Positions 33,804 to 53,494 are shown, counted from the stretch's first letter. The stretch: DNA of 60,209 nt from Candidatus Omnitrophota bacterium (GCA_023247215.1 JAHFGX010000002.1:1-60209), one strand, 5' to 3'. Notes: generated by a model not told the origin, from the letters alone. Numbers and translations are program-made.

Positions 33804-33846
33804 CTAAGACTGGCATCCCTAGGAACAAGCCGCTATAATGCCCCCC

Positions 33847-34587: not shown

Positions 34588-34601
34588 GAGGCACACACAG
34601 C

Positions 34602-34850
34602 ATGGCGGAAGCGGTCCACGATCGGGTTCGGGCGATTATTGCCGAGCAACTCGGCGTAAAGTTGGAAGAGGTCACGGACAGCGCGTCGTTTATCGAGGAT
34701 CTGGGCGCGGATTCGCTCGACACCGTCGAGTTGGTCATGGCCCTGGAAGAAGAGTTCGGCGTCGAGATTCCGGATGAGGATGCCGAGAAGATGGTCACGG
34801 TCGGGGACGCCATTAAGTATATCGAGCAAAAAGCTTCCGGCGCGAAGTAA
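34602..34850 (+). CDS. acpP: acyl carrier protein
   Basis: [20 protein letters not shown] phosphopantetheine attachment site. Confidence 0.95.
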
Positions 34851-34883
34851 TCTGTGTTCGTTGGCGTGCAGTTCGTTAGCCAG

Positions 34884-34918
34884 ACGTCCGCAACCCCTTG
34901 CGGACGTTGTTCTTTTTT
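34884..34918 (+). terminator. acpP-fabF intergenic terminator/attenuator
   Basis: ACGTCCGCAA-cccc-TTGCGGACGT followed by TGTTCTTTTTT. Confidence 0.65.
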
Positions 34919-34942
34919 GAGGGGGAGGGATCGGTGCTCTTA

Positions 34943-36348: not shown

Positions 36349-38613
36349 TTACGGTTTCACCACGGTGATCGAGCCGCTGGCCATGTTGGGCGTGGGCCCA
36401 CCTTTATCGGTTGCGGTCACGGTGATGGAGTGTGAACCCGCGGCCACGTTATTCACCGACCAGTTCATGCTACAGGAGCTCGTGTTGGAGCAGACCTTGA
36501 CCGACTTCTGATCGATGAAGACCTCGATCCGGCTGATGCCGCTCGCATCGCTGGCGGTGGCCGCAATCTTCGCCGTGCCCTTCCGGGGGAGGAGGGCGCC
36601 AGCCGCCGGGCTCGTAATCGTCACCGTGGGCGGAGTCGTGTCCGGGGTGAGGACGTTGTAGGTCGCGGAAGCCGAAGCGGCATAATGCGCATCGGCCGCG
36701 TTGGTGGCCGTTTCGGTCAGCGTGTAGAACCCCACGGCCGCATCGGTCGGCGCGGTGACGCTGATGGCTTGGTTGACGCTGGCTCCCGAGGCCGCATTGA
36801 GGCTGAAGCTCGCCGGGCTCTGCGACCAGCCCGCGGGGAGGGTCGGTGCGACGTTGAAGGTCGCTGCAGGGCACGAGTTGTTGTTGTTCGTGAGCGTGAG
36901 GGTATAGGGCAGCGTCTGGCCCGGGAAGCCCCACTGACTCGACGGTGAGACCGAAAGGCTCGGGTTCGACGGCGTGCAGACGGGGGGAACAAACGCAATG
37001 TCCACCGCCGCCCCGGTGGCGGAGACGCTCCTGGTCGTCGCCGTGATCCCTTTGATGGGGTCGTAGAACGTCTGGCCCACGGCGAGGGCCGCATCCGAGA
37101 ACGAGGACGTCGCAGGCGTGGCGTCAATCAGCTGGGATTGCGTGATCGTCGTATAGGGCGGGGCGAGGCGAATAGAGACGCCGTTCACGACGGGTGCGGT
37201 CGAGCTGAACGCGTCAAAGACGCCATACGGCTGGCGGAACTCGAGGTAGTAGTACTTGAGCACGCTGCCCCCGGAGGTGACGTCGCGGGGAATGCGCAAC
37301 ACCTGGGCCCCGCCCGAGGCCCATTCCAGCGGCGCGATCGTGTAGGTCCCGCTCACCGTGATATCCTGCGTGTTGACGGGGTCGAACACGCCCAACTGCC
37401 CCTTGTGGTAGTTGTTCGGATGGTTGGTCGAGCTCCCCATAATGTCGAATGGATCGCCGTATTCATTCGAGATGCAGGTGGCGCTGATCGCCACATGCTG
37501 ACCGCTGCTGTCGGTGCAGGCGTAGCTATTGCCATGGTGCATGGTAAAGTTGTGGCCCAGCTCATGCCCGGCCACACGCGTCTGGTACGACCCGTTGACC
37601 CACGAGGAGCCAGGAGACCCGCCGATCGTGCCCAGGCCCCACCACGCACAGGACCCGGTGTTCGGAAAGGCGTAGACGACCTGGGTATAGCCGGTGATGT
37701 TGAATCCATCGGCCGCCGCTGCGGTCCGAGCGGCTGAGGCCCAGGTCGACGTATCGCAGGTCGTGTTGTCATAGGGGATGGTATACCAGCCATAGACATC
37801 CCCATCCACATTGAGCTTGCCCTGGATGGCCCACTTGCCGAACGAGACTGCCTGATAAAAGGCGTTCACCCCATTGGTATCCGTGAAGGTGACCGCTTTG
37901 GCCGTTGCGGGCGTGTACGGTTGTACCGCGTTGTTCTGAAAATTGAACAGAAGGACGGCGATATTCTTGATAGTGGACGGCACAAGGGTTGCAGCCGTGA
38001 TCGTTTCAACGCTGCCGCTGTCCGCTGACAGTAACGCCATCTGGTCCGCCAACCGCACCCCATGGACCGCGATCTGAGAGTCGGTTGGCAGGTCGGGACC
38101 CTTGCCGTCGACGAAATGGAGCGTGATGTGCTCACCGGCGTTGGTGGTGAGCGTGTAGAGGCCCGTGGCGATCTGTAGGTCCAAGTCGCTGGCGATGGTC
38201 ACCGTCAAGCTCCCCTTGAGACTGGTGTGCTGTTCCACCCCATCACGGAGGTTCTCAGGGAATGAGTTGCGGACTGCCTCTGGGAGGGCGACCTCAAGGA
38301 CCACTTCCGGATGTTTTTCCATCAGCGCAAGAAGCGCCTTTCGACGCTCCAGGGCTGTCTGCGTGAGCTGATTGAGTATCTCGGCTCGTTGCGCTGCCGG
38401 AGCTCGATCGAGCGCTTCGTGCAGTCGAAGTAGCTGCAAGGTGAGCGGATGGATGACACTCAGCGCTCCTGTGCTGGGGGCGTCCTCCTCATGCGCCGCC
38501 GCTGGGCCTGGAAGCTGGACGCATAACGAGCTTGCCACCACAATCCCCACAAGCCTCACGATCGCGTTTGTAGGCCAGTATCCGATACGACGAGTACGGG
38601 CGTGCCCACTCAT
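36349..38613 (-). CDS. secreted zinc metalloprotease, gametolysin (M11)-like catalytic domain plus C-terminal Ig-like domains
   Basis: N-terminal signal with an RTRR motif. HELGHNFTMHH (HExxHxxxxxH) at 37534-37566. Upstream IAVLLFNFQNN...FYQAVSFGK pattern, C-terminal beta-rich repeats and a terminal Ig-like domain (IEVFIDQKSV...HSITVTATD). GGAGGAGG Shine-Dalgarno. Confidence 0.7.
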   Translation of the reverse strand: MSGHARTRRIGYWPTNAIVRLVGIVVASSLCVQLPGPAAAHEEDAPSTGALSVIHPLTLQLLRLHEALDRAPAAQRAEILNQLTQTALERRKALLALMEKHPEVVLEVALPEAVRNSFPENLRDGVEQHTSLKGSLTVTIASDLDLQIATGLYTLTTNAGEHITLHFVDGKGPDLPTDSQIAVHGVRLADQMALLSADSGSVETITAATLVPSTIKNIAVLLFNFQNNAVQPYTPATAKAVTFTDTNGVNAFYQAVSFGKWAIQGKLNVDGDVYGWYTIPYDNTTCDTSTWASAARTAAAADGFNITGYTQVVYAFPNTGSCAWWGLGTIGGSPGSSWVNGSYQTRVAGHELGHNFTMHHGNSYACTDSSGQHVAISATCISNEYGDPFDIMGSSTNHPNNYHKGQLGVFDPVNTQDITVSGTYTIAPLEWASGGAQVLRIPRDVTSGGSVLKYYYLEFRQPYGVFDAFSSTAPVVNGVSIRLAPPYTTITQSQLIDATPATSSFSDAALAVGQTFYDPIKGITATTRSVSATGAAVDIAFVPPVCTPSNPSLSVSPSSQWGFPGQTLPYTLTLTNNNNSCPAATFNVAPTLPAGWSQSPASFSLNAASGASVNQAISVTAPTDAAVGFYTLTETATNAADAHYAASASATYNVLTPDTTPPTVTITSPAAGALLPRKGTAKIAATASDASGISRIEVFIDQKSVKVCSNTSSCSMNWSVNNVAAGSHSITVTATDKGGPTPNMASGSITVVKP

Positions 38614-38902: not shown

Positions 38903-39025
38903 CAGCCACGAGAAAGGCAAACCTCCCCGCCAATGGGTTGGGCCGGGGACCCGCCGACGCAGTGATGGCGGGCTCGGGAACGAGGGGACGCAAAACCACG
39001 GGTCCCAGTGAGGATAGCCTGGCTG
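38903..39025 (+). ncRNA. candidate c-di-GMP-I (GEMM-I)-like riboswitch aptamer
   Basis: AAAGGCAAACC (38913-38923) and GGGGACGCAAAACC (38984-38997) match the two most conserved GEMM-I segments. They flank a hairpin closed by CCTC/GAGG, and the whole element is closed by a 6-bp P1 CAGCCA/TGGCTG (38903-38908 with 39020-39025). Confidence 0.45.
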
Positions 39026-39214
39026 CCACACGATTGACGCTAGGTTCTCCCCCCACGGATAGCCGGGTTGCCGCATCGGGGCATCTGACCTGTGAGGGGA
39101 AGAACCGTCACGAAGCTTCACTCAACTTCGTTCGCCTCTTGGCGGACCACCCCTCAATCAGATTTCCCCTTATGAGGTCCAAAATTCTGTGGTAAGGTAG
39201 GACGAGGGGGTGGT

Positions 39215-39583
39215 GTGGGAGAGATGAAGACCTTATTGATCGTCGATGATGAAAGCAAGGTCTGCCTTCTGCTGTCACGATTTTTTGAACAGCGGGGGTT
39301 GCGGACGCTGACCGCCACCTCAGGGACGGAAGCGCTGCAGAAGCTGGAGGCGGAGACCCCGGAGTACCTCTTATTGGATATCCGCATGCCGGATATGTCG
39401 GGGCTGGAGGTCTTGAAGCTGGCCAAGCAGCGGCACCCTCGCCTCAACGTCGTGATGTTAACTGGGTGCACTGACGCTGAAGCGGCTCAAACCGCCTTTC
39501 AACTGGGTGCGACCGACTACCTCACCAAACCGTTCCGATGGGGAGACCAGGAACTCGCGCGCGTTTTCTTTGACCCGAATTGA
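39215..39583 (+). CDS. single-domain response regulator (CheY-like REC), first gene of the secretion operon
   Basis: LLIVDDES, LLLDIRMPDMSG, VVMLTG and TKPF. GTG at 39215 or ATG at 39224. Confidence 0.8.
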   Translation: MGEMKTLLIVDDESKVCLLLSRFFEQRGLRTLTATSGTEALQKLEAETPEYLLLDIRMPDMSGLEVLKLAKQRHPRLNVVMLTGCTDAEAAQTAFQLGATDYLTKPFRWGDQELARVFFDPN

Positions 39584-39602
39584 CTTCCCCACCTCTTCGC
39601 TG

Positions 39603-41312
39603 ATGGCTGAGCGACACGGCATGACGCAACCATTTTCCTCAAAGCGGAAGACGCTCCTGGGAGCCCTCCTCGTGGAGAAGGGGCTCTTGACGTCGCAGCA
39701 GTTGTCCGACGCCATCACGCGCCAGGCCGAAACGGGCGACTATCTCGGCGCACTGCTCATCCGCCAAGGGGTGATCACGGAATACCAGTTGATGGAGGTG
39801 TTGGCCGAGCAGGTGGGGATGCCGTGCGTCCACCTGTCCGAGGCGCGGATCGATCCGCAGGCGCTGGCGAAAGTCCCCCCGAAATTCGCCAGCCATTACC
39901 ACATCATGCCGCTGGCGATCTCAGAAGATGCGCTCCATATCGCCATCACTGATCCGTTCAACGTCCAGACGCTCGATGAGCTGCGGTTGCTGCTGGGCTG
40001 CGACGTCAAACCGGTCCTGGCCAGTCACAGTGACATCTCCGAAGCCATTGAGCGCCATTACGGCATCGGCGCCTCGGCGGTGGAACGGCTGCTGGACACG
40101 GACTTGCGCGCGGCCGCCCCCGTGACCATCGCCGAAGACCTGACTGTGAAAACGGACGTCGCCTCGGTCGTGTCCTTCGTCAACCAGTTGATTCTCTCGG
40201 CGGTCCGCGACCGGGCCACGGACATTCACATCGAGCCGTTTGACAAGTTCCTGCGGATTCGCCAGCGGATCGATGGCGTCATGTATGAGGTTTCCATCCC
40301 GACGGATCTGAACAAGCTGCACCAGACGATCGTCTCGCGCATCAAGGTTATGGCCAAGCTCGATATTGCCGAAAAGCGGCTGCCACAGGACGGCCGCATC
40401 AAGGTGCGGCTGGATAGTCAAGAGGTAGACCTGCGCATTTCCGTGCTCCCGAGCAGCTTCGGAGAGTCCGTCAACATCCGCCTCCTCTCCTCGGGGATGC
40501 TCCACAGCTTGGAGCAGCTCGGCCTGGACGGTCCGCAGATGGACCTCCTGCAGGAGCTGATCCAAAAACCGCATGGCATCATCTTCGTCACCGGGCCGAC
40601 CGGCTCAGGCAAGACCACCACGCTGTACGCTTGCCTGTCAAAACTCAATGCGCCTCACGTAAAGATTTTGACCATCGAAGATCCTATTGAGTACCAGCTG
40701 CAAGGCATCACGCAGCTGCAGGTGCATCCGAAGATCGGGTTCTCGTTCGCCGCGGGGCTGCGCTCGATGTTGCGGCACGATCCCGACATCATGATGGTGG
40801 GAGAAGTGCGCGACCCGGAAACCGCGGAGATCACGATCCGCAGCGCGCTCACGGGGCACCTGGTGTTTTCCACCCTCCATACCAATGACGCGGCCGGCGG
40901 CGTCACGCGGCTGCTTGATATGGGCGTCGAGCCGTTTTTGGTATCCTCTTCGGTGCTGTGCTTCATCGCCCAGCGGCTGGTCAGAGTCATGTGCCCCGCC
41001 TGCCGCGAAGAGTGCGCGGCGGATCCCACGCTGTTAGCAAAATTCAATGTGGGGGGGCCGCTGCCGACGACGTTGCAGTCGAGCCGAGGCTGCACGGACT
41101 GTAAAGGAACGGGATTTAAGGGACGGACCGCCATCTATGAATTTCTCGTTGTCAGCGACCCCATCCAGCAGCTCGTTCTCAAACGGGCGTCCTCCCATGA
41201 CATCGCCCGCGCCGCGCAACAGACCAACGACATGCGTACCTTGCGGCAGGACGGCTGGCGGAAGGTCCTCCGCGGCATCACGACGCCCGCGGAAGTCCTC
41301 CGGGTCACCTAG
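39603..41312 (+). CDS. gspE: type II secretion / MSHA-type assembly ATPase with N-terminal MshEN domain
   Basis: T2SSE_N region with a tandem MshEN motif, Walker A GPTGSGKTTT, Walker B IMMVGEVRD, His box, and the tetracysteine CPAC...CTDC. Start chosen after the REC stop. Confidence 0.9.
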   Translation: MAERHGMTQPFSSKRKTLLGALLVEKGLLTSQQLSDAITRQAETGDYLGALLIRQGVITEYQLMEVLAEQVGMPCVHLSEARIDPQALAKVPPKFASHYHIMPLAISEDALHIAITDPFNVQTLDELRLLLGCDVKPVLASHSDISEAIERHYGIGASAVERLLDTDLRAAAPVTIAEDLTVKTDVASVVSFVNQLILSAVRDRATDIHIEPFDKFLRIRQRIDGVMYEVSIPTDLNKLHQTIVSRIKVMAKLDIAEKRLPQDGRIKVRLDSQEVDLRISVLPSSFGESVNIRLLSSGMLHSLEQLGLDGPQMDLLQELIQKPHGIIFVTGPTGSGKTTTLYACLSKLNAPHVKILTIEDPIEYQLQGITQLQVHPKIGFSFAAGLRSMLRHDPDIMMVGEVRDPETAEITIRSALTGHLVFSTLHTNDAAGGVTRLLDMGVEPFLVSSSVLCFIAQRLVRVMCPACREECAADPTLLAKFNVGGPLPTTLQSSRGCTDCKGTGFKGRTAIYEFLVVSDPIQQLVLKRASSHDIARAAQQTNDMRTLRQDGWRKVLRGITTPAEVLRVT

Positions 41313-41345
41313 CCACCCCTTCCCCTGCGTGTTATACTCGTTGGA

Positions 41346-42554
41346 ATGCCCCAGTACGTCTACCGGGCCAAGGACAACACCCTGAACGTCATCGAAGGGA
41401 CGATTGAGGCGGACAACGAGGCGGCCGCGATCACCCGTCTTGGTAGTCAAGGGGTATTCCCGCTCGTGATTACCGAGGCGGTGGCCCCCCGCTCCAGCCG
41501 CCCGAGCGTTTCCCACCGCGCCATCCCCAGCCGCACGATCGCCTACATGACCCGCCAACTCGCCGATTTGTTGGGCGGTGGTCTCCCGCTGCTGAGTGCT
41601 CTGACGCTGTTGGCCAAGCAGACGGAGCATCGTCCGTTGCGGCAGGTCATCGACTCCTTGAGTGCGAGCGTGCGCGAGGGGCAGTCCTTGAGCGCTGCGA
41701 TGGCGTATCATCCTGAGGTGTTTTCCACGCTCTACCTGAATATGGTCAAAGCCGGGGAAGTCGGCGGAGGGTTGGAGACGGTGCTGGTGCGGCTGGCCGA
41801 TGTGGGCGAGGCGGACGCGGAGCTGCGGAGTCGCGTCGTCAGCGCGCTGGTGTATCCCGCTATCGTGCTCGGGATCGGTCTGGTGACGGTGGGGGTGCTG
41901 TTGGTTTACGTGATCCCAAAAATCACCGGCATCTTTTCGGAGAGCGGGCAGTTGTTGCCCCTACCGACGAGGATCCTGCTGACGATCAGCCAGACGGTGA
42001 CGCAGTGGTGGTGGACGCTGCTTCTCAGCGTGGTGGTGATCGTCTGGCTCACGCGGCAGTGGCGGCTTGCTCCTCATGGGCGCCAGGTGTTAGACCAGTG
42101 CGTCCTGCGCTTGCCGCTGGTCGGGACGCTGTCCCGCAAGCTGGAGACCGCCCGCTTTACCCGGAACCTCGGCGTGATGATCGGGCAGGGCGTTCCCATC
42201 TTGCAGGCGCTTGAGGTCGGCTCGCACAACGTCTCGAACGTCGTCATCCAACGGGCCTTGCGGCAGGTGCAGGAGGCGGTTCGCGACGGCACCAGCATCG
42301 CGTCGGCGCTGAGCGCCTGCGGGCAATTTCCGGTCTTTGTCAGCAATATGGTGTCACTGGGAGAAGAGTCCGCCACGGTGGATACGGCGCTACTCAAGGT
42401 GGCAGTCGCCTACGAGCGGGAGGTCGATCGGACCATGCGGACGCTGACGACGGTGTTGGAGCCGTTGCTGATCGTGGTGGTGGGGCTGATCGTCATGTTC
42501 ATTGTGATCTCGATATTGCTGCCGATCTTCAACATTGGATTGGTGGCGCAATGA
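41346..42554 (+). CDS. gspF: type II secretion system platform protein GspF/PilC
   Basis: 402 aa with two T2SSF repeats, 3 TM segments, and typical ...LL..G.PLL.AL... motifs. Confidence 0.9.
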   Translation: MPQYVYRAKDNTLNVIEGTIEADNEAAAITRLGSQGVFPLVITEAVAPRSSRPSVSHRAIPSRTIAYMTRQLADLLGGGLPLLSALTLLAKQTEHRPLRQVIDSLSASVREGQSLSAAMAYHPEVFSTLYLNMVKAGEVGGGLETVLVRLADVGEADAELRSRVVSALVYPAIVLGIGLVTVGVLLVYVIPKITGIFSESGQLLPLPTRILLTISQTVTQWWWTLLLSVVVIVWLTRQWRLAPHGRQVLDQCVLRLPLVGTLSRKLETARFTRNLGVMIGQGVPILQALEVGSHNVSNVVIQRALRQVQEAVRDGTSIASALSACGQFPVFVSNMVSLGEESATVDTALLKVAVAYEREVDRTMRTLTTVLEPLLIVVVGLIVMFIVISILLPIFNIGLVAQ

Positions 42555-43030
42555 TGCATCGAAATCTACACGAGGGGCAAGGGGCAGGGGCATGGAACAC
42601 ATCCCACGCCCCACGCCCCACGCCCCTTCGTGGGTTCACCCTCGTCGAGATTATGCTGGTGGTCATCATCATCGGGGTCCTCGCGGCGATGGTGATCCCG
42701 CGGTTTGCCGGGCGGACGGAGCAAGCTCGAATCGCCCGCGCCAAATCCGACATCGCCATCATCGGACAAGCGCTCGACCTGTACGAGTTGGACATCGGGC
42801 AATACCCGGAAAGCCTGGAGATGCTGGTACAGCGGGAAGCGCCCTCAAGCCTTGAGGAGGGCGCCGCCTTGCGGTGGAACGGACCCTACCTGAAAAAAGG
42901 CTTGCCGAAGGATCCCTGGGGGAGTCACTACCACTTCCGTGCGGAGTCTCAGCATAACCAAGACTACGATTTGTACTCGTTAGGCCCCGACGGTCAGGAA
43001 GGCCACGACGACATCACCGACTGGGAATGA
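42551..43030 (+). CDS. gspG: major pseudopilin GspG with an unusually long (28 aa) prepilin leader
   Basis: RG|FTLVEIMLVVIIIGVLAAMVIPRF class III signal, then the GspG core ARIARAKSDI...LDLYELDIGQYPESL...DPWG..Y...S. ATGATG overlaps the gspF stop. Confidence 0.85.
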   Translation: MMHRNLHEGQGAGAWNTSHAPRPTPLRGFTLVEIMLVVIIIGVLAAMVIPRFAGRTEQARIARAKSDIAIIGQALDLYELDIGQYPESLEMLVQREAPSSLEEGAALRWNGPYLKKGLPKDPWGSHYHFRAESQHNQDYDLYSLGPDGQEGHDDITDWE

Positions 43031-43046
43031 CCAGTGACATTGCGGA

Positions 43047-43580
43047 TTGCGAATTTCGGATTGCGGATTGAAACACCGGGATTCGAAGCCTCCTCGTAGC
43101 TTTACCTTAATCGAGTTGGTGTTTGTCGCCGTCGTGGTGGTTCTGCTACTGGTGGTTTCCCTCCCGCAGTTTTCCAAAACCTCACAACGCCTCCACGCCG
43201 AGCAGGTTGCGTTCGAGCTAGCGCAACTGTTGCGCTTCGCCAGGGAACAGGCGATCACCCGCGGGCACGTCGTCGTGTGGGTCTGGAATGCATCGGCGCG
43301 TCGTGCACGACTTGAGGCCCTCGATGGCACCGGCCAGCAAGTGCCGATTGCGGATCGCCTGGCGCAGAGTGCTGTTGTGCCAAGCGACGTCACACTCCGT
43401 CTGACGCAGGACGGCGCTCAAACCGATGCGGTGAAATTTTTTCCGGACGGCACCAGCCAGCCGACGAGCCTGCTTGTGAGCGGTGGTGCCACCGTCTATA
43501 CTGTGACGGTGGATGTTGCGACCAGCCAGGTGGCGGTGATGACCGATGCGACGACAGAGTCGGGGGCTGCTGCTCATTGA
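43047..43580 (+). CDS. gspH: minor pseudopilin, GspH-like
   Basis: RS|FTLIELVFVAVVVVLLLV prepilin-like N-terminus and a GspH-like body (AFELAQLLRFAREQAI). TTG start; an alternative TTG lies at 43068. Confidence 0.6.
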   Translation: MRISDCGLKHRDSKPPRSFTLIELVFVAVVVVLLLVVSLPQFSKTSQRLHAEQVAFELAQLLRFAREQAITRGHVVVWVWNASARRARLEALDGTGQQVPIADRLAQSAVVPSDVTLRLTQDGAQTDAVKFFPDGTSQPTSLLVSGGATVYTVTVDVATSQVAVMTDATTESGAAAH

Positions 43581-43941
43581 AGCCATCCTTGCCGCGGTGG
43601 TGATCGCGGTGGGGCTGGTCTTCGTCAGCCGCGGCCTCTCCAGCCAGCTCGAGGCACTTCGAACAGTCGAGGACTACGACACGCTGATGACGTTGGCGCG
43701 CAGCCGCCTGCTGACGCTTGAAGCGGAACGGACGGCAGGCCGCGTCACCGGCCACCTGAACGCAAGCGAGTTCGACGCCCCCTATCAACACTACCACTGG
43801 GCGATTACCACGCAGTCGCTGGGAGCCGACACGCTGTACCGCGAGGTGATCCTGACGGTGCGGCGGAGCGACGGCCCTTCGTCGGTGGTACAACTCTCCG
43901 AAGTTTGGCCGACCGAATGGGTTCCTGAAGAATGGCTCTGA
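43546..43941 (+). CDS. gspI: minor pseudopilin, GspI-like
   Basis: MRRQSRG|LLLIEAILAAVVIAVGLV with E+5. The size (131 aa) and its position after gspH fit GspI. Confidence 0.55.
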   Translation: MRRQSRGLLLIEAILAAVVIAVGLVFVSRGLSSQLEALRTVEDYDTLMTLARSRLLTLEAERTAGRVTGHLNASEFDAPYQHYHWAITTQSLGADTLYREVILTVRRSDGPSSVVQLSEVWPTEWVPEEWL

Positions 43942-44546
43942 GCCGGCGCGGCCTGACGTTCGTCGAACTGTTGATTGCAGCGACGATGCTGTCCATTCTG
44001 TTCGTGGGGTTGAGTGGGCACCTGCGAGGCGGCATCGAAGTGTGGCGGCGCGCCACGCACACCGTTGAGGCTCTTCAGCGTCAGCGGGTGGCGCTTGATC
44101 AGTTCGAGCAGGATCTGGTCCGCGCGATCCCCGCTACCGTCCCTCGCGACCCCTCGCTGCAGCCGAGCTTTGAGGCCGACCATCTTCGGTGGTGGACGGT
44201 GGTGCCAGCAGCAGCACAGCAGACCGGTCGAGTCCGTTTGGTTTCGTACGCCTGCAATCAGGTGAACGGAGTCGCAGGATTATGGAAGGTCAGCCAGTCG
44301 GTGGGTGAGGCGCGCGAACAGATGGCGGCCGAGCCCGTCCGATTGCTGGCCGGCTGCGAGGGGCTGTCGATCCGGTATGCGTATCTGCCGGCCGAGGGCG
44401 AGGGGCCGATCGAGTGGCAAGCCGACTGGGAATTTCCTGATGCGCTGCCGAAGCTGCTCGAGGTATCGGTCCGGCTGTCGTCGGGTCATGAGGTCAAACG
44501 GACGATGATGATCCCCATCGGCGTGTTGGAACCCCGTCCCTCGTAA
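43932..44546 (+). CDS. gspJ: minor pseudopilin, GspJ-like
   Basis: MALSRRG|LTFVELLIAATMLSILFV with E+5; 204 aa; position matches the G-H-I-J-K order. Confidence 0.55.
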   Translation: MALSRRGLTFVELLIAATMLSILFVGLSGHLRGGIEVWRRATHTVEALQRQRVALDQFEQDLVRAIPATVPRDPSLQPSFEADHLRWWTVVPAAAQQTGRVRLVSYACNQVNGVAGLWKVSQSVGEAREQMAAEPVRLLAGCEGLSIRYAYLPAEGEGPIEWQADWEFPDALPKLLEVSVRLSSGHEVKRTMMIPIGVLEPRPS

Positions 44547-45527
44547 ATGAAACGAGGCTCGTTGCTGATTGTGACCCTTTGGATGGTGACGCTCTTGAGC
44601 GTCTTGGCGATCGCCATGGCGAAATATCTGTCGCTCGAAGTCCGGCTGACCAAGTACCGGTTGGCGCGCGAGCAAGCGAAAGCGCTGGCCCGCAGCGGCG
44701 TGTATCTGGCAATGCAGCGGTTGGCGGCGGATGCGCAGCAGGCCGATGAACGGTATGACTGGTTGGGGGATGATTGGGCCATGTTTGCGCCTCCGGAGGG
44801 GGAGTTGGATCATCCGGCCGCATGGATTGTGCCGCTTCCGGCAGCAGGCTCAAGGGTTTCAGAACGTGGTCGGGTGGAAATTCAGATGATCGACGAAGAG
44901 CGAAAACTGAACCTCAATCAGATCGCCTGCGACCCCGCCTCTGCCACCTACAAGGCGTTCACCAACTTCTCAGAGACCGTGGGATGGGTCGAGAAGCTCG
45001 TCGATTATCACGATATGGATAGCACTCCGTGTGGCTCCAACGGCTTGGAGGAAGATGACGCTGTCCAGCCACCGTACAAAGCAAAGGACGCAGCGCTGGT
45101 GGCCCATGAAGAGGTGCTGGACATTCCGGGCTGGCCGGCCGAAACGCTCTCGACGATGCGACAATGGTCGACGGTGGCTGACCCCACCACTTCATCGAAT
45201 ATCACATTGAACATCAACACGGTGTCCCCGGAACTCTTGGTGGCGTTAGGCTTCGGCCAGGCGACAGCGCAGGCGCTGGCTGCCTGCCGTGAGCAGGGGA
45301 TGGTGTTCAAGGAGGCCTCCAACATCCTGACGACTGCGGAATCGTGCGCCGGTCCGTCCGGATTGAGCTCTGCTGAACGGAGCCTGCTGGCCAGCCAGTT
45401 TGTCGTCGCCTCGCAGACGTTTACCGTCATTTCGACCGGGATCGTGGCGGAGCTGGCGGTCAAGGTTCAGGTCGAAGCAATCGTTCAACGTTCGCCGGAG
45501 CTCAAGATCCTTGCGTGGAGAGAGTGA
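44547..45527 (+). CDS. gspK: minor pseudopilin GspK
   Basis: N-terminal hydrophobic segment lacking E+5, DEERKLNLNQ (GspK K-L-N-I-N motif), and a C-terminal HhH-like region. Confidence 0.7.
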   Translation: MKRGSLLIVTLWMVTLLSVLAIAMAKYLSLEVRLTKYRLAREQAKALARSGVYLAMQRLAADAQQADERYDWLGDDWAMFAPPEGELDHPAAWIVPLPAAGSRVSERGRVEIQMIDEERKLNLNQIACDPASATYKAFTNFSETVGWVEKLVDYHDMDSTPCGSNGLEEDDAVQPPYKAKDAALVAHEEVLDIPGWPAETLSTMRQWSTVADPTTSSNITLNINTVSPELLVALGFGQATAQALAACREQGMVFKEASNILTTAESCAGPSGLSSAERSLLASQFVVASQTFTVISTGIVAELAVKVQVEAIVQRSPELKILAWRE

Positions 45528-46933
45528 TGGCGACACGGATCGCGATTGAGTGGGCCCGCAATTCATTGCGACTGGCCGTCTCGAAGGGTTCGCAGGATCG
45601 GTGGCGCCTACGGGAGCTCCGCGTCGAGCCGTTCGAATCGGGCACGGCGCCGGCGGCCGTGTTGCGCACTGCCCTCAAGGCGCTGAGGCTGGGCGGGGGC
45701 GTGCGGGTGATCGGCGTGATTCCTCGCGAGCAAGTGATCTTGCGGGTGATGAAGTTTCCGACGACGTCATCCGAGGAGTTGCGGCAAATGGTGGAGCTGT
45801 CCGGCAAAGCGCAACTGCCCTATGCCACAGAGCAGGCGGTTGTCGACTACTCACTGATCGATCAGCGAGAGGGGTTTAGCACCGTCGCGATGGTCGCCTG
45901 CCAGCGCGACTTCTTGGAGCGGCAACTCCATCCCTTGCACGAAGCCGGTCTGCAGGTCGAGTGCTTGACCGTCAGTTCTTCCGGCGTGCTGGGCTGGTAT
46001 ACGGCCGCGCGGATGACCAGTCTGGTTGAACCGGTGCTCGTGATCAACCGCGATGAGGATCGGACGGATCTGGTGCTCATCAGAGACGGGAGGCTGTTGC
46101 TGACGCGAAGCATCCCCTCCGGCAGCGACGAGGATGGCCCGGAGCTGCTGACACATGAAATCGAGCAGAGCCTCTCCACACTGCGCAAGGACCTGCCGGG
46201 GATCGAGGTGCGTTCGTTGCTCTTGACCGGGGTCGGTCCGCTGGCGGCGTGGAAAGAGAAGGCGTCACAACACCTCAGCCTGCCGGCATCGGTTGTCGAT
46301 GGGGCGCAGCCGCTGACCGGACGGGCCATGAGCGAAACCGCTTCGGCGTCTCCGGTGGTTGTCGGCGGAGCGGCCTGCGCGCCAACGCGTCAACTCCTGA
46401 ACCTCAACCCGCCCGAAGTGCGGCAGACGACCCGCCACCAGTCGCAGGTGCGTGAGGTGGTGACGGTGGGGGCGCTCCTCTTGGCAGTCTTGGTGTTGGG
46501 GGGCAGCGTCTCGGCGTTGCACGTGTACCGTCAGTATCGTCTGATCGCGCGCATCGATCAGGCGATTTCGGAGGTGGATCCATTGACGCGTCAAACGAAA
46601 ACCGCGGCGCAGAGGGTCGAGCTCGTGACGGCGGTGCTTGAGCAACGTCGCCGGCTGGCCGCGTTGCTGGGCGGCGTCTTTCGAAGCACGCCATCGACGA
46701 TCACGCTGGACGCGCTGACGTTTGATCGCTTACGGCGCGAGATGGGGCTGCGTGGCCGCGCGCCGTCGACGCAAGACGTCCTGGCGTATCGCAAAGCGCT
46801 GGAACAGCTGGAGGGTGTGGCGGAAGCCCGCCTGAAGTACGCCACGGCACGACAGACGGCCGACGGCGAGCGCGCAGATTTTGAAATCCTCGTCAAGACC
46901 ACGGATCACGAACCCCGACCCGCAACGCGCTAA
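45527..46933 (+). CDS. PilM-PilN fusion (GspL-equivalent assembly platform protein)
   Basis: Actin-like PilM N-terminal domain, a TM segment VVTVGALLLAVLVLGGSV, and a PilN-like periplasmic C-terminus. ATG overlaps the gspK stop. Confidence 0.6.
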   Translation: MATRIAIEWARNSLRLAVSKGSQDRWRLRELRVEPFESGTAPAAVLRTALKALRLGGGVRVIGVIPREQVILRVMKFPTTSSEELRQMVELSGKAQLPYATEQAVVDYSLIDQREGFSTVAMVACQRDFLERQLHPLHEAGLQVECLTVSSSGVLGWYTAARMTSLVEPVLVINRDEDRTDLVLIRDGRLLLTRSIPSGSDEDGPELLTHEIEQSLSTLRKDLPGIEVRSLLLTGVGPLAAWKEKASQHLSLPASVVDGAQPLTGRAMSETASASPVVVGGAACAPTRQLLNLNPPEVRQTTRHQSQVREVVTVGALLLAVLVLGGSVSALHVYRQYRLIARIDQAISEVDPLTRQTKTAAQRVELVTAVLEQRRRLAALLGGVFRSTPSTITLDALTFDRLRREMGLRGRAPSTQDVLAYRKALEQLEGVAEARLKYATARQTADGERADFEILVKTTDHEPRPATR

Positions 46934-46934
46934 G

Positions 46935-47459
46935 ATGCCATCCTTCAGGCCACGTGAGCGCCGGTTGCTGCTGGTGACGTTGATCGTGATCGGTTGCTGG
47001 CTCATCGTTTCATGGCTGGTCGTGCCACTGAGCCATCGCGCCCAAGACTTGGAGCAGCGTGTGGATTCCCAGACGATGGCGCTTGAGGCCCTCAATCGTC
47101 TGCTGGCCCGGCAGACGTCGATTGAGCAGCACTACCAGGCGGTGGCCGGCTATCTATCAACAGACAAGCCGGAGGCTGCGGAAGAGCGGCTGTTGACCGA
47201 TTTGCAAATCTTTGCGCAGCAGGCGGGCGTGCAGATCAATCTCAAACCCAGACCTGCCAAACGGGAAGGGCAGGTGACTCGCGTGGGGGTCGAAGTCGAT
47301 CTGCACACCAACCAAGACAAACTGTTTGCGTTCCTCGACGCGCTGCTGAGGATGCCGAAGCTCGTGCAGATTGAGCATCTGCAGATCTCCGGCGCGCCGG
47401 GCCAACCCGGCATCCTCCATACCCAACTCCTCATCGAACAGCTGACCATTCCGCAATAG
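46935..47459 (+). CDS. GspM/PilO-like inner membrane platform protein
   Basis: N-terminal TM LLLVTLIVIGCWLIVSWLVV, a coiled coil, and a ferredoxin-like C-terminus (VGVEVDLHTNQDKLFAFLDAL). Confidence 0.55.
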   Translation: MPSFRPRERRLLLVTLIVIGCWLIVSWLVVPLSHRAQDLEQRVDSQTMALEALNRLLARQTSIEQHYQAVAGYLSTDKPEAAEERLLTDLQIFAQQAGVQINLKPRPAKREGQVTRVGVEVDLHTNQDKLFAFLDALLRMPKLVQIEHLQISGAPGQPGILHTQLLIEQLTIPQ

Positions 47460-47509
47460 GCCATGCGGACAACGATCAGCGAAGTGACGCATGCATTCCC
47501 GTTTTTATC

Positions 47510-47559
47510 TTGACCGAAATGTTGGTATGTGCTATGACTACTCTCTACTTAGAGAGTAG
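47510..47559 (+). promoter_or_regulatory. candidate promoter (TTGACC-N17-TATGAC) plus a perfect 10-bp inverted repeat
   Basis: TTGACC at 47510-47515 and TATGAC at 47533-47538. The palindrome CTACTCTCTA-ct-TAGAGAGTAG (47538-47559) ends 2 nt before the ATG. Confidence 0.45.
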
Positions 47560-47561
47560 AA

Positions 47562-47810
47562 ATGATTCGAGTAGATAACCTTTATCTGATCAAAGACTTA
47601 TCAAGGTTAAGCGGGCACTCGATCTATACCATTAAGTTCTATCTGAAGTTGGGGCTGATTCAGGAAGTCGGGCGAAGCCAAGAGACGCGGTTTCGCTATT
47701 TTAATGAAGAGACGTTAGAGCGCCTGGCGAGGATCCGTGCCTTACGCAAGGAAGGCAAGGGGTTGACCGACATCGCGCGTCTCTTGCCCACGATGGACCG
47801 CGCGGCATGA
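47562..47810 (+). CDS. short MerR-family HTH protein (DNA-binding domain only)
   Basis: 82 aa. YLIKDLSRLSGHSIYTIKFYLKLGLI...RFRYFNEETLERLARIRALRKEGKGLTDI matches the MerR HTH plus wing with no effector domain. Its stop overlaps the exeA-like start (ATGA). Confidence 0.7.
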   Translation: MIRVDNLYLIKDLSRLSGHSIYTIKFYLKLGLIQEVGRSQETRFRYFNEETLERLARIRALRKEGKGLTDIARLLPTMDRAA

Positions 47811-48646
47811 GTTATTACACCGTGCTGGGCCTCGCGAAAGAGCCGTTCTCCACGAGTCCCGATCCATTCTTTTTCTACCGTTCCAGTGCCCACCTGCAGG
47901 CCATCACGCGGATTGAAATCGCCATCCGGCTCAAACGAGGCCTGTCGCTCATTCTGGGCGACGTGGGCACCGGCAAGACGACGCTAGCCCGCACGCTGCT
48001 GACCAACTTCCCGCAGGAAGAAGGGTTCAATTTCCATATCCTGCTGGATCCGTCCTTTGAGTCCGAATACCAGTTCTTGCTGCACCTCAGCCGCATCTTC
48101 GGCGTGCAGCCGGCCTTCAAATCCACGCTCGACTGTCGGGAGGCGATCGAGCATTACCTCTTTCAGAGCGGCGTCACCGAGGGCAAGACGACCGTCCTGG
48201 TGATCGACGAAGGCCAGAAGCTGTCCACGCACATGTTGGAGAACCTGCGCGTCCTGCTGAATTACGAGACCAACGAATTCAAGCTGCTGCAGGTCGTGAT
48301 CTTTTCGCAGATGGAGCTGCTCGGACGGATCACGCGGATCAAAAACTTCATCGACCGCGTGGCCCTCAAGTACATCATCAATCCGCTGAATGAAGAGGAA
48401 ACCAGCCAGATGATCCAGTTCCGTCTGCAGTCGGCCGGGCTGGAGTCCTCACGGATCGTCTTCATGCCGGAGGCCATTCGAGCCGTCTACCGGTGCACCC
48501 AAGGCTACCCGCGCAAGATCGCCCTCCTCTGCCATAATGCGCTGGAGGCGATGGTGATGTACGAGCGGCCGGTGATTGACGAGTCGCTCATCCAGGAGTT
48601 GGCTGCTCATGAGTCCCGATGGGTCGGCGCAGGCGCCCCTGCCTGA
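47807..48646 (+). CDS. ExeA/GspA/MshM-like AAA ATPase
   Basis: PF..SPDP.F.Y.S..H..A N-terminus, Walker A GDVGTGKTT, and Walker B VLVIDEGQ. No peptidoglycan-binding domain. Confidence 0.8.
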   Translation: MSYYTVLGLAKEPFSTSPDPFFFYRSSAHLQAITRIEIAIRLKRGLSLILGDVGTGKTTLARTLLTNFPQEEGFNFHILLDPSFESEYQFLLHLSRIFGVQPAFKSTLDCREAIEHYLFQSGVTEGKTTVLVIDEGQKLSTHMLENLRVLLNYETNEFKLLQVVIFSQMELLGRITRIKNFIDRVALKYIINPLNEEETSQMIQFRLQSAGLESSRIVFMPEAIRAVYRCTQGYPRKIALLCHNALEAMVMYERPVIDESLIQELAAHESRWVGAGAPA

Positions 48647-49247
48647 AGAAAAACTATTGAAGTTGATTCGGGGTAAGCCCCGCCACCCCGCTGCGTCGTC
48701 GCCGCTGGCGGCTGCCAGCCGCGAGATACGCCACGTCCTGCGTGCCTCAGACGGGGAGACAGCGTGGTGGTTCCACTGGCCCCAATGGGTCGGTGGCCTG
48801 TTGGTCGCGATCCTGGCCATCGAAGTGCTGGTGATGGTCGTGCAGATCATTCGCCCGCTCCCGCATGTCGAGCTCCCCGCTGTGACAGCGACCGCCCCGT
48901 CCGCCGTCGACCGCACAACGGCGCCATCCGTCGAGATGCCGTCCCTGAGCGAACAGCCGGCGCAATCCATTTTCGCGACGACGGCTGCTGAGCCACAGTG
49001 GGCAGCGGCATCCTCGTCGTCGACGGTGTCGCCGAGCGCCCAAGCCAACGCCTTGGCGGCGCGCTTGAGCTTGGTGGGGATCGTCGCCGGCGATCCGCCG
49101 CAAGCGATCATCGAAGACAGCCAGACCCAAAAGACGTTCTTCGTCACCAAAGGACAGCGGGTGATCGAAGGTGCCGTGCTTCAGGAGATCCGGGATTCTC
49201 ACGTGATCCTCCAGTATCAAGGAGAGCAAATTGAACTCACACTCTGA
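48609..49247 (+). CDS. GspB/GspC-like secretin-interacting protein (PilP/HR-type C-terminal domain)
   Basis: TM WVGGLLVAILAIEVLVMVV and C-terminal LSLVGIVAGDPPQAIIEDSQTQKTFFVTKGQRVIEGAVLQEIRDSHVILQYQGEQIELTL. AGGAG lies 10 nt upstream of the ATG at 48609. Confidence 0.55.
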   Translation: MSPDGSAQAPLPEEKLLKLIRGKPRHPAASSPLAAASREIRHVLRASDGETAWWFHWPQWVGGLLVAILAIEVLVMVVQIIRPLPHVELPAVTATAPSAVDRTTAPSVEMPSLSEQPAQSIFATTAAEPQWAAASSSSTVSPSAQANALAARLSLVGIVAGDPPQAIIEDSQTQKTFFVTKGQRVIEGAVLQEIRDSHVILQYQGEQIELTL

Positions 49248-51087
49248 GTCCCTGCGCATGACGGCCATCCTCCTCGCGGGGCTGCTGTGGGGAGGAGGGA
49301 GCGCATCGGCCGACGCGCAAGCCCCCGCGCAGTCCACGGCCAGCAACGCCACCCAACCCGAAGGGACGGCGGACCGTATCTCGTTGGATCTGAAGGGGGT
49401 CGACATCCTCGATGTGTTGAAGCTCCTGTCACAGAAGAGCGGGCTGAACTTTGTGGCCGGCCACAACGTGACCGGGCGGGTGACGATCTTTGCGAACGAC
49501 GTGGGGGTATGGGAGGCGTTTGAGCGGATCATCGATGCCAACGAACTAGCCTATGAGCGCGCCGGGAACATCGTGACGGTGACGACCGCCCGGGACTACG
49601 AGCTGCTCTACGGACGCCCCTTCCAACAACGCAAGCGCAACGCCGTGATCCCCCTCCGGCATGCGAAGGCGGCGCAGGTCGCGACCGCCTTGAACCAGCT
49701 CAAGTCCACGGTGGGCCGCGTGGTCGTGGATGAGCCCTCGAACACCGTGATCCTCACCGACACGGCCGCCCCGCTTGCCGAGATGGAGCGGTTCGTCGCG
49801 CAACTGGACCGCCCGACGACGACGTTGATCTATCCCCTCGAGTACGCCGAGGCGGAGAAGCTCCAGGACAAGATCCAGGGCTTTCTCACGCCGGGGGTGG
49901 GGACCTTCACCGTGGATGCGCGCACCAACAAGGTCGTCGTGACGGATCTGGCGGAGGTCGTCTCGAAGATCGATCAGGTCCTGGATGCCTTCGACGAGCG
50001 CGACTCAGAGGTGCTCATTGAGGCCAAGATCATCAAGGTGGAGCTCAGCGATGAAGAGAGCCTCGGCGTGGATTGGCAGCAGGTGTTTGCCGGGGTGGAC
50101 ATGCAGGCGCGCGGCAACTTCCGGGTGCTCAGCGATATCGTCGGCGGGACGGGGACCGGCGTCGCCTTGAAATTCCTGAGCGCTCCGGGTGGGCGGACCC
50201 AGGTGATTCTGGAGGCGCTCAAGAAATTCGGCAAAGTGGAGACGATGTCCAATCCGCGGATCACCGTGTCGGATCGCCAGGAGGCCAAAATCCTCATCGG
50301 CACGAAAGAAGCGGTGGTCACGGTGACGACGACGGTGCCCGCGACCGGGGCAACGGTCAGCGCCCCCCAGGTCCAATTCGTGGACGTGGGCACCAAGCTC
50401 TACGTCACCCCCAGCATCAAGCGGGACGGGCACGTGCAACTGAAGATTCGTCCTGAGGTCAGCACGGCCAAGGTGGAGACGTTTCAAAGCAACCGGATTC
50501 CCATTGTCAGCACGACGGAGGCGGAAACCAGCGTCCTGGTCAAGAGCGGGGTCACCCTCATCATCGGCGGGTTGATTGACAGTAAGACCGAACGCGCCCA
50601 GGTTCAGGTACCGTTGCTGGGGAGCGTGCCCGTGCTGGGGGCGGCGTTCCGGAGCCGCACGAACACGACCAAGAAAACCGAGCTGGTGGTGTTCCTCACT
50701 CCACAGATCATCTCAGCCAGCGGCGAGCCGGTCACCCAGTTTCCGACGTCTGCGCTGCCGGCCGGCGCCGCCAAACGCGCTGGGGCGCTCAAACCGGCGG
50801 TGCCGGAAGCGTACCAAGCGCTCCTTCGTGCGCTCATCAGTACCCGGGTCGCCCAAGCCCTCCGGCAAAGCGCAGCGGGCGCCGGCTCCGTCTTGCTTGC
50901 TCTGACGATCACCCGCGACGGCAGCGTCAGCGGCGCGCCGCACATCACCAGCGATCAGGGAGTCGTATTCGTCCAGGCGGCTGCGAAGGCGCTTGAGGCC
51001 CTTGAGCCATTCCCCCCCTTCCCCGACGAAACCTCTACCGACTCCGCGCGCTTCCGGCTGGAGGTGGAGTACCGTCCCGCGAGCTGA
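49231..51087 (+). CDS. gspD: secretin (GspD/PilQ/MshL family) with a TonB_C-like C-terminal extension
   Basis: Signal peptide, N0 (ISLDLKGVDILDVLKLLSQKSGLNFV), N1/N2 repeats, and secretin core (VPLLGSVPVLGAAFRS....ELVVFLTPQII), plus a 94-aa TonB_C-like tail. TTG start with AAGGAG. Confidence 0.85.
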   Translation: MNSHSESLRMTAILLAGLLWGGGSASADAQAPAQSTASNATQPEGTADRISLDLKGVDILDVLKLLSQKSGLNFVAGHNVTGRVTIFANDVGVWEAFERIIDANELAYERAGNIVTVTTARDYELLYGRPFQQRKRNAVIPLRHAKAAQVATALNQLKSTVGRVVVDEPSNTVILTDTAAPLAEMERFVAQLDRPTTTLIYPLEYAEAEKLQDKIQGFLTPGVGTFTVDARTNKVVVTDLAEVVSKIDQVLDAFDERDSEVLIEAKIIKVELSDEESLGVDWQQVFAGVDMQARGNFRVLSDIVGGTGTGVALKFLSAPGGRTQVILEALKKFGKVETMSNPRITVSDRQEAKILIGTKEAVVTVTTTVPATGATVSAPQVQFVDVGTKLYVTPSIKRDGHVQLKIRPEVSTAKVETFQSNRIPIVSTTEAETSVLVKSGVTLIIGGLIDSKTERAQVQVPLLGSVPVLGAAFRSRTNTTKKTELVVFLTPQIISASGEPVTQFPTSALPAGAAKRAGALKPAVPEAYQALLRALISTRVAQALRQSAAGAGSVLLALTITRDGSVSGAPHITSDQGVVFVQAAAKALEALEPFPPFPDETSTDSARFRLEVEYRPAS

Positions 51088-53452: not shown

Positions 53453-53494
53453 CGCTCGTGGGGCGGCCGCGCCCCCGGTTGATCCTTCCCGCGC

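Follow-up and report, generated by a model that had tools for sequence, protein, structure and literature searches.

Conservation across the uncultured phylum Omnitrophota of a probable type II secretion system variant that carries its own regulatory module

The stretch of DNA analysed here, referred to throughout as the window, comprises 60,209 nucleotides from Candidatus Omnitrophota bacterium (GCA_023247215.1, JAHFGX010000002.1:1-60209). At positions 39215-51087 it carries fourteen plus-strand open reading frames (ORFs), which encode, in order, a CheY-like receiver protein (REC), an assembly ATPase of the GspE type, homologues of GspF and of the pseudopilins GspG to GspK, a GspL equivalent, a protein of the GspM/PilO family, a MerR-like protein, an AAA_22 ATPase, a protein with a homology region (HR) domain and a secretin. 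An earlier reading of the sequence (the original prediction) had described the cluster as a hybrid of a type II secretion system (T2SS) and a mannose-sensitive haemagglutinin (MSHA) pilus; its ORFs, coordinates and gene order are confirmed, and the Pfam and NCBIfam domains are as it predicted. Probable start codons lie slightly off those of the longest ORFs for REC (ATG at 39224), the GspE-type ATPase (ATG at 39603 or 39618), the GspL equivalent (ATG at 45527), GspM (ATG at 46935) and the secretin (ATG at 49258). We consider it likely that the cluster is a complete T2SS, conserved across the uncultured phylum Omnitrophota as a lineage-specific variant with its own regulatory module. We report its gene content, domain identities, conservation and synteny, together with a conserved promoter and palindrome.

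Seventeen related loci were compared, 15 from the GTDB species genome set, in which some Omnitrophota carry the mislabel “uncultured Planctomycetales”, and two from contig look-ups; where they have to be told apart they are labelled L001, etc. These 17 Omnitrophota loci share the gene order E-F-G-H-I-J-K-L-M-MerR-AAA-HR-secretin. The cluster is bordered upstream by (HK)-REC-HD-GYP-fabG-acpP-fabF, where HK is a histidine kinase, and downstream by a short-chain dehydrogenase/reductase (SDR) gene and smc. The phylum, wherever a record names one, is Omnitrophota. Likewise, among 85 homologues of the L-like protein (36-52% identity) every named one comes from metagenome-assembled genomes of Candidatus Omnitrophica/Omnitrophota. 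Identity across the loci is highest for the AAA protein (72-80%), followed by the ATPase E (67-77%), the MerR-like protein (60-73%), the secretin (54-63%) and L (37-50%).

The GspE-type ATPase (39603-41312) has an N-terminal MshEN motif of the cyclic di-GMP (c-di-GMP) type, a second MshEN domain, Walker A and B motifs and a zinc site of the form CxxC...CxxC, in which the tetracysteine reads CPAC...CTDC. It scores 438 bits with T2SSE and 87 bits with MshEN, and in the more specific models 594 bits with TIGR02533 GspE (cut-off 630) and 566 with PilB. The ATPase core (residues 178-569) is 52.8% identical to XcpR, 48.5% to Escherichia coli GspE, 45% to Aeromonas caviae MshE and 42% to HofB, and among chains in the PDB it ranks EpsE (400 bits) above PilB of Myxococcus xanthus (389), PilB of Geobacter (375) and PilF (344). 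The next gene (41346-42554) encodes the inner-membrane platform protein GspF, for which TIGR02120 is the top-scoring of all models tried (402.8 bits, cut-off 424) and which matches T2SSF twice (198 bits).

The major pseudopilin GspG (42551-43030) passes the equivalog model TIGR01710 with 134.1 bits against a cut-off of 88.85, and matches T2SSG with 95 bits. It has a long leader, the cleavage site G|FTLVE and the motifs DPWG...SLGPDG, and is 45-48% identical to XcpT and GspG; it resembles PpdD or MshA/B at the N-terminus only. Prepilin N-termini follow in the right order on H, I, J and K, and are kept in the orthologues. GspH (43047-43580) matches Pfam GspH (41 bits against 21), GspI (43546-43941) has the N-terminus G|LLLIE, GspJ lies at 43932-44546, and GspK (44547-45527), with the site G|SLLIV and without Glu5, scores 125.6 bits with NF037980 against a cut-off of 130. 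In the window, position -1 of the GspH prepilin site is Ser and not Gly (S|FTLIE); Ser is also found there in L005 and L018, Ala in L013 and L016, and Gly in the other orthologues. Over the cluster as a whole, cut-offs are passed for GspG, GspM, Pfam GspH and Pfam T2SSC, and are narrowly missed for GspE (594/630), GspF (403/424) and GspK (125.6/130). The run from E to M is colinear with E. coli gspE-M and with Pseudomonas aeruginosa xcpR-Z.

The GspL equivalent (45527-46933, 472 aa) combines a PilM-type actin-like cytoplasmic domain, a long transmembrane/coiled-coil helix and a ferredoxin-like periplasmic domain of the PilN/GspL type. Its AlphaFold2 model is confident, with a mean predicted local distance difference test score (pLDDT) of 91.5, and shows an actin-like domain joined by a helix of 90 residues to a ferredoxin-like one at the C-terminus, so that the protein is correctly described as a PilM::PilN fusion. 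In Foldseek searches PilM ranks at the top (E 1e-17 to 1e-14), followed by the cytoplasmic domains of EpsL/GspL (E 1e-10 to 1e-11, TMt 0.62-0.68); among profiles, PilM_2 is matched and TIGR01175 pilM reached with 61 bits, below its cut-off. As judged from the model, the architecture that defines GspL is just such a fusion of PilM-type and PilN-type domains. The phosphate-1 motif DxG of the actin fold is replaced by EW(T/A)R, which makes ATP binding by L doubtful, as in GspL. The adjoining platform protein of the GspM/PilO family (46935-47459) passes both NF040576 (62.3 bits against 60) and T2SSM_b (31.4 against 21.7).

The gap between gspM and the MerR-like gene contains, as predicted from the sequence, a weak 6-bp hairpin with a T-run, followed by a new promoter, TTGACC-N17-TATGAC. 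A generic promoter and terminator scan flagged neither hairpin nor promoter in this gap; the promoter is recognisable because it is conserved on comparison across loci. This sigma-70-type promoter is followed by a palindrome, CTACTCTCTA-CT-TAGAGAGTAG, which ends 2 nt 5' of the ATG of the MerR-like gene, the two together occupying 47510-47559 on the plus strand as a promoter with a putative operator. In all 17 loci the sequence CTTGACA-N17-TATgAT and then ACTCTCTA-N2-4-TAGAGAGT stand ahead of the MerR-like gene. The exact palindrome core is found in 15/17 loci, in one copy each, and its single occurrence in the window compares with 0.03 expected by chance. A scan of metagenomes with ACTCTCTANNTAGAGAGT matched at least 120 contigs. 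Of 120 contigs among the matches listed, 60 have a MerR-like gene directly beside the palindrome, and in these the AAA, HR and secretin genes come next wherever the contig is long enough; they include a divergent group whose L proteins reach no more than about 20-27% identity. The other 60 listed contigs, which lack such genes, are probably for the most part chance matches.

Four divergent metagenome contigs (L046, L057, L061 and L087) have a compact arrangement, fabF-(gspE-L-like)-palindrome-MerR-AAA-HR-secretin, with no F-K genes between. Since these loci keep it without F-K, the run of operator, MerR, AAA, HR and secretin is the most stable unit of the cluster. Elsewhere the palindrome may be repeated: L036 carries two tandem copies, 26 nt apart, upstream of the MerR-like gene (8220-8263), and L075, a metagenome contig without a MerR or AAA homologue, has seven copies of the 18-nt palindrome pattern at a spacing of about 67 nt (61-483), an array that looks like an unrelated tandem or CRISPR-like repeat. 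As the arms of the palindrome are invariant and its centre varies, a putative protein-binding site is favoured. A purely RNA hairpin was rejected, given arms that are invariant in sequence without covariation and a variable centre; a hairpin formed by the palindrome may nevertheless sequester the AGAGAG ribosome-binding region.

The 82-aa protein encoded directly downstream (47562-47810) is of the MerR family and consists of the winged helix-turn-helix only (MerR_1, 52.7 bits), and its PDB matches are confined to the MerR DNA-binding domain. Classical MerR proteins have an N-terminal winged helix-turn-helix, a long dimerisation helix and an effector-binding C-terminus, and their operator lies inside a promoter spacer of 19-20 bp. 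Here the dimerisation helix and the effector C-terminus are absent, the spacer is 17 nt, and the palindrome stands downstream of the -10 hexamer. From its sequence, then, this appears to be a MerR-fold DNA-binding protein and not a classical MerR activator; it is the obvious candidate for binding the palindrome, and the 17-nt spacer with an operator downstream of the -10 points to repression rather than to classical MerR-type activation. In the window, L001 and L003 the MerR-like and AAA genes share 4 nt, which suggests that the two proteins are produced together. No description of the palindrome/MerR module was found in a limited literature search, which is not proof of novelty.

The AAA_22 ATPase (47807-48646) is predicted to be a cytoplasmic protein of 279 aa in the ExeA/GspA/MshM family, with 72.9 bits for AAA_22 and 170 bits, below the cut-off, for TIGR03015. 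It is closest to A. caviae MshM (32.6% identity, 119 bits), and its match to E. coli GspA is confined to the P-loop; homologues are named “general secretion pathway protein A” by JGI and sometimes “transposase” by NCBI. V. cholerae MshM is itself listed as 43% identical to the T2SS factor ExeA (PMC4624765). The next gene (48576-49247) encodes a bitopic HR-domain protein of 223 aa, like GspC or GspB, which matches the whole Pfam T2SSC profile (37 bits against 27), lacks PDZ and coiled-coil domains, and matches T2SSB weakly (19.5 bits); it could be called GspB-like with equal justification as GspC-like. GspA is usually encoded beside GspB, the HR domain of which shares its fold with GspC and PilP, and there are GspA forms without a periplasmic region, paired with an HR-domain GspB; forms confined to the cytoplasm are known in Alteromonas and Pseudoalteromonas (PMC9239104). 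The AAA-then-HR pair beside the secretin gene in the window mirrors gspA-gspB. The original prediction saw no canonical GspL or GspC in the cluster. Neither the GspL nor the NCBIfam GspC models are reached; L is built like GspL in its model, and the 223-aa protein has the HR domain of GspC/GspB.

The last gene of the cluster (49231-51087) encodes a secretin of 618 aa with an N0/STN domain, two Secretin_N domains (86 bits) and the secretin domain itself (148.5 bits). Its C-terminus, from about residue 527 to 616 (nt ~50809-51078), matches the TonB_C profile, as do the C-termini of 12/12 secretin orthologues tested. A local hidden Markov model of this tail, built from the orthologues, also finds it at the C-termini of secretins in the divergent metagenome group; as a query, the C-terminal 119 residues returned no homologue at E ≤ 0.001. 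The SPOR domain of Legionella LspD is the only T2SS secretin module cited as specialised for peptidoglycan binding (PMC9239104), and a description of a TonB_C-tailed secretin was not found in a literature search that was limited and is not proof of novelty. With the model of the MSHA secretin MshL (TIGR02519) the protein scores 166 bits against a cut-off of 250.2, which is under its scores for GspD and PilQ.

Several inputs for signals are found at the 5' end of the cluster. The ATPase passes the c-di-GMP motif model NF053729 (58.8 bits, cut-off 38), and its 53-residue motif has the correct spacing (24 + 5 + 24) and keeps the Leu, Gly and Gln positions, as in V. cholerae MshE, P. aeruginosa PA14_29490 and Thermus thermophilus PilF; in L015 the ATPase lacks this subdomain. 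REC (39224-39583) is a CheY-like single-domain receiver (Response_reg, 98 bits) with the DD pair, the phospho-acceptor Asp, Thr and Lys. It stands before gspE only in the window and L013 among the 17 loci, with fabF abutting gspE in the other loci, and the reading of it as a conserved first cistron was therefore rejected. Outside the predicted cluster, cmscan found a candidate c-di-GMP-I (GEMM-I) aptamer on the plus strand (38906-39076), within the 5' leader of the REC-gspE operon. RF01051 matches 38906-39030 with 35.6 bits against a gathering score of 35 and four non-canonical pairs, and its GGC variant RF03167 matches 38907-39076 with 42.4 bits against 59, both alignments having long insertions in the two hairpin loops. 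A TTGACA -35 hexamer at 38846 is accompanied by a poor -10. Minimum free energy folding of the leader (z-score -0.6) revealed no expression platform; within the candidate the 3' half has two alternatives, GGAUAGCCUGGCUGCC and GGAUAGCCGGGUUGCC, separated by 45 nt, which might be alternative pairings of one. A clear RF03167 riboswitch (68.9 bits against 59) lies at L001 20355-20431, downstream of smc and before a 268-aa protein without a Pfam family, and implies that the phylum uses this riboswitch class.

Upstream on the plus strand, at 32672-33739, the HD-GYP regulator that had been predicted is present as a REC-HD-GYP response regulator (Response_reg 95 bits, HD_5 125 bits), a putative c-di-GMP phosphodiesterase, which also precedes fabG-acpP-fabF-gsp in L001, L014, L015 and L019. 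For this genome, with REC, the c-di-GMP motif, HD-GYP and the GEMM-I-like match, the idea of a signal-gated machine is thus reasonable, but REC and, as judged from the eight loci scanned for it, the riboswitch candidate are lineage-specific additions and not conserved parts.

Compared with the classical T2SSs (Gsp of E. coli, Xcp of P. aeruginosa and Eps of Vibrio), the cluster has E to K, the L equivalent and M in canonical order, an HR-domain protein of the GspC type and a secretin, no retraction ATPase, and, as in xcp, a peptidase that would be encoded outside it. It differs from them in that the HR and secretin genes stand at the 3' end, behind the MerR-like and AAA_22 genes, and not at the 5' end. 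Other differences are the full PilM-type cytoplasmic domain of L, the HR protein without PDZ or coiled-coil, the TonB_C tail of the secretin, the extra N-terminal c-di-GMP-type subdomain of E, and the several equivalog cut-offs missed. Like GspA/GspB (ExeA/ExeB), the cluster has an AAA_22 ATPase gene followed by a gene for a bitopic HR protein beside the secretin gene. Unlike GspA, however, the AAA protein of the window lacks a transmembrane segment and a peptidoglycan-binding domain, its gene is preceded and overlapped by the MerR-like gene, and the HR protein, being the only one in the cluster, must serve as GspC too.

With the MSHA locus of A. caviae (L020) the cluster shares the tandem 24-residue MshEN motif of the ATPase and an MshM-like AAA protein beside the secretin. 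It has no Msh-type pilin set, however: the major subunit is GspG, with a match to MshB at the N-terminus only, the MshL model is missed, and the ATPase core is nearer XcpR than MshE. A tblastn search of the window with the A. caviae proteins found no homologue of MshI, MshJ, MshK or MshN (none below E = 0.6). The 3' half, L(PilM::PilN)-M(PilO-like)-(MerR, AAA)-HR-secretin, is colinear with E. coli hofM-N-O-P-Q, and so follows the PilM-, PilN-, PilO-like, HR-fold and secretin order of PilMNOPQ in type IVa pili (T4aP). It differs from these in the fusion of PilM and PilN, the change of DxG to EW(T/A)R, the absence of PilT from the window, and a major subunit of the GspG and not the PilA type. 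This layout is compatible with an early-branching T2SS that would have kept a T4aP-like arrangement.

The two features offered as hallmarks of MSHA, the MshE-type ATPase and the MshM-like AAA protein, are present, but neither is exclusive to MSHA. According to Wang et al. 2016 (PMC5013675), ATPases with MshEN are products of typical gsp and pil operons, and one T2SS ATPase of P. aeruginosa binds c-di-GMP. A hybrid of T2SS and MSHA fitting no archetype is therefore not supported: each supposedly foreign part has a T2SS counterpart. We read the cluster as a T2SS variant conserved in the phylum rather than as a hybrid machine of a new category. What stands of the claimed unusual composition is the arrangement, which is unusual and has extra regulatory inputs, a platform protein that is a fusion of the PilM::PilN type, and an AAA protein nearer MshM than E. 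coli GspA.

A number of results weigh against the assignment to T2SS. There is no prepilin peptidase in the 60-kb window (phmmer --max with E. coli GspO against six-frame ORFs, best E 1.7), as had been predicted, and none of the searches with GspE, HofB and MshE (tblastn) found a second GspE/PilB/PilT-like ATPase in the window, in keeping with the predicted lack of a retraction ATPase. However, the T2SS model of MacSyFinder treats gspO as a loner for which pilD can stand in (PMC6668835), and P. aeruginosa likewise has no prepilin peptidase gene in its xcp locus, so that it is normal for a T2SS cluster to lack both gspO and a retraction ATPase. At full length, E scores higher with PilB and PilF chains than with GspE chains, owing to its N-terminal MshEN domains. 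L is below the cut-offs of TIGR01709 GspL (31 bits against 65) and T2SSL (24 against 25.5), and its cytoplasmic domain is nearer PilM than GspL by Foldseek E-value; M passes Pfam PilO as well (33.3 bits against 22). GspI has no family match in the Pfam/NCBIfam profile search, GspJ stays below the T2SSJ cut-off (24.8 bits against 28), the HR protein reaches about 25 bits in NCBIfam GspC models with cut-offs of 101-561, and the secretin scores 254.8 bits against 351 with GspD (TIGR02517) and 244 with PilQ, also below cut-off.

To these can be added that F and the secretin are about equally far (27-33% identity) from T2SS, MSHA and Hof references, and that in neighbour-joining trees with four references the Omnitrophota E, F and D form their own clade, which is not placed. 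The references in these trees are gammaproteobacterial, and T4aP is represented by E. coli Hof and the PDB rankings only; a tblastn search of plasmids with HofB for PilB references mostly matched GspE. In L003 (and L004, which duplicates it) and in L012, a second, distinct relative, gspE does not adjoin gspF. Large secreted proteins without a Pfam family take its place upstream of gspF there (L003 3158-5623, L012 3781-5469), the one in L012 having a hydrophobic, pilin/PilX-like N-terminus. As for the signal inputs, the Arg of RLG is missing from both halves of the c-di-GMP motif in the window, with Leu and Tyr in its stead, and likewise from those of all orthologues, a difference from the c-di-GMP-binding ATPases named above. 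Substitutions of Arg9 shifted the affinity of MshE about fivefold at most (PMC5013675), so c-di-GMP binding by E is still plausible from its sequence. The aptamer match in the window is marginal, and none was found before REC in L013 or gspE in seven other loci.

Against this background three other explanations were weighed. The cluster could encode a non-retractile surface pilus of the T4aP/MSHA type for attachment to prey or surfaces, with PilM::PilN, the PilO-like protein, the PilP-like HR protein and the secretin as an alignment complex of the pilMNOPQ type. The colinearity of the 3' half with hofM-N-O-P-Q is what this would predict, as are the best match of the L cytoplasmic domain to PilM, the Pfam PilO match of M, the PilF and PilB chains at the top of the full-length E scores, the near-equal secretin scores for PilQ (244 bits) and GspD (255), and the closeness of the AAA protein to MshM; discussions of Omnitrophota, moreover, present them as cells that attach or prey on others and possess loci for pili and secretion. 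Such a pilus is nevertheless quite improbable, in view of a major subunit that is clearly GspG (equivalog passed, 45-48% identity to XcpT/GspG), a GspK-type minor pseudopilin, a GspC-type HR domain, an ATPase core nearer XcpR/GspE than MshE/HofB, and the lack of PilT and of a PilA-type pilin in the window. It also seems unlikely that the cluster is a distinct type IV filament subtype, a true mosaic of T2SS, MSHA and T4aP deserving its own class, as the original prediction would have it. The separate clade of Omnitrophota E, F and D, well apart from the gammaproteobacterial T2SS, MSHA and Hof references, the missed equivalog cut-offs, and the parts peculiar to the family (a MerR-like protein and its operator, a secretin with a TonB_C tail, and an L that resembles PilM) all speak for it. 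However, every supposedly foreign part has a documented T2SS counterpart, the gene order from E to M is canonical, and any distant phylum would be expected to stand apart from four gammaproteobacterial references; such a distance is no proof of separate origin.

The third alternative concerns the regulatory module. The MerR-like and AAA_22 proteins could act on DNA together, as a regulatory ATPase and its DNA adaptor or as a domesticated module of the transposition type, and control the secretin operon instead of serving as an ExeAB-like assembly factor. This would suit the 4-nt gene overlap in the window, L001 and L003, the invariant palindrome directly upstream, the “transposase” label on some NCBI homologues, a weak phmmer match to MuB, and the resemblance of the AAA model to ORC/Cdc6 and TnsC. 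That resemblance is a weak hint: the AlphaFold2 model is moderate (pLDDT 70) and its ORC/Cdc6/TnsC-like AAA+ matches are at TM-scores <0.5. With ExeA and MshM in the same family, both tied to secretin or pilus loci, and with the HR-protein and secretin genes always next after the AAA gene, we doubt this explanation. A wider version of the preferred reading, in which the cluster is a T2SS, can be put forward tentatively and with more reservation than assent: that it represents a phylum-wide, early-branching T2SS subtype, with a T4aP-like platform (a PilM-type domain joined to PilN) and pilMNOPQ order, a new module of an invariant operator, a MerR-fold protein coupled in translation to an AAA+ ATPase of the GspA/MshM type, and a TonB_C-tailed secretin, and, in some lineages, gating by c-di-GMP at both RNA and protein. 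In that case the control and assembly module may be an acquired, dedicated one that is not described for any type IV filament machine.

For the cluster as a T2SS variant we propose the following mechanism, in which the secretion function, ligand binding, operator function and role of TonB_C are all deduced from genes and models. Two transcription units would be involved. Unit 1, (riboswitch-like leader)-REC-gspE-F-G-H-I-J-K-L-M, would supply the motor ATPase, inner-membrane platform and pseudopilus, and unit 2, transcribed from its own conserved promoter with the palindromic operator, the MerR-like protein, AAA+ ATPase, HR protein and TonB_C-tailed secretin. A prepilin peptidase from another part of the genome would cleave the pseudopilins, and GspE, docked on the L/M/F platform, would drive assembly of a pseudopilus that forces folded exoproteins out through the secretin; one candidate substrate is the M11-like protease encoded alongside. 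Autoregulation of the secretin unit, through binding to the palindrome, is the probable role of the MerR-like protein; the AAA+ partner of this protein may assist secretin assembly, as ExeAB does, and the TonB_C-like tail may hold the secretin in place or make it more stable. In this lineage c-di-GMP probably tunes activity via the MshEN motif of GspE, perhaps also via the RNA of the 5' leader, and phosphorylation of the additional REC protein probably does so too.

The protease in question is encoded on the minus strand at 36349-38613, divergently from the REC-gspE operon. It is a 754-aa M11-like zinc metalloprotease with Ig-like domains, predicted to be secreted, with a signal-like N-terminus, the motif HELGH, a weak match to Peptidase_M11, and matches to NPCBM_assoc and Big_7; the gene, a candidate for encoding a T2SS substrate, is absent from this position in most relatives. 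The neighbourhood of the cluster is one of fatty-acid synthesis (27812-36181 and 52646-57145), with plsX-fabH-fabD...fabG-acpP-fabF upstream and an SDR gene like that of enoyl-ACP reductase, followed by smc, downstream. The fab-gsp-smc synteny, including REC-HD-GYP, is conserved across the phylum (L001, L014, L015 and L019) for no apparent reason. Between the secretin gene and the SDR gene the window has an ORF like that of an O-methyltransferase (51793-52596; Methyltransf_3, 30 bits), which is not at this position in L001. Directly upstream of REC-HD-GYP, on the minus strand at 30761-32525, are nadA and a gene for an NrtR-like regulator with Nudix and winged helix-turn-helix domains, where L001 has a GAF histidine kinase. 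The window also contains a complete rRNA operon (3804-9013), made up of 16S (3804-5372), two tRNAs (5485-5711), 23S (5812-8809) and 5S (8897-9013), with a further tRNA at 3390-3471; it could allow exact taxonomic placement.

Omnitrophota are abundant, uncultured and often ultra-small bacteria with a suspected host-dependent or predatory lifestyle, and published work on them has dealt mainly with T2SS-like and Tad-like (rcpC) loci beside giant genes. The fab-gsp-smc locus is not described in the Omnitrophota papers examined, in a search that was limited and is not proof of novelty. The current understanding of T2SSs is not overturned by this cluster, and its interest rests on the conserved operator with the MerR-AAA module, the PilM-like GspL and the TonB_C-tailed secretin. 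The PilM-like GspL, together with the pilMNOPQ-like gene order, bears on the origin of T2SSs from type IV pili, the palindrome and the MerR-fold protein make up a directly testable circuit for secretin expression, and the TonB_C tail points to a novel means by which a secretin might be anchored or stabilised in the absence of a pilotin. Given its conservation across the sampled relatives, within a fatty-acid synthesis neighbourhood, the locus is probably the main export route for folded proteins in Omnitrophota.

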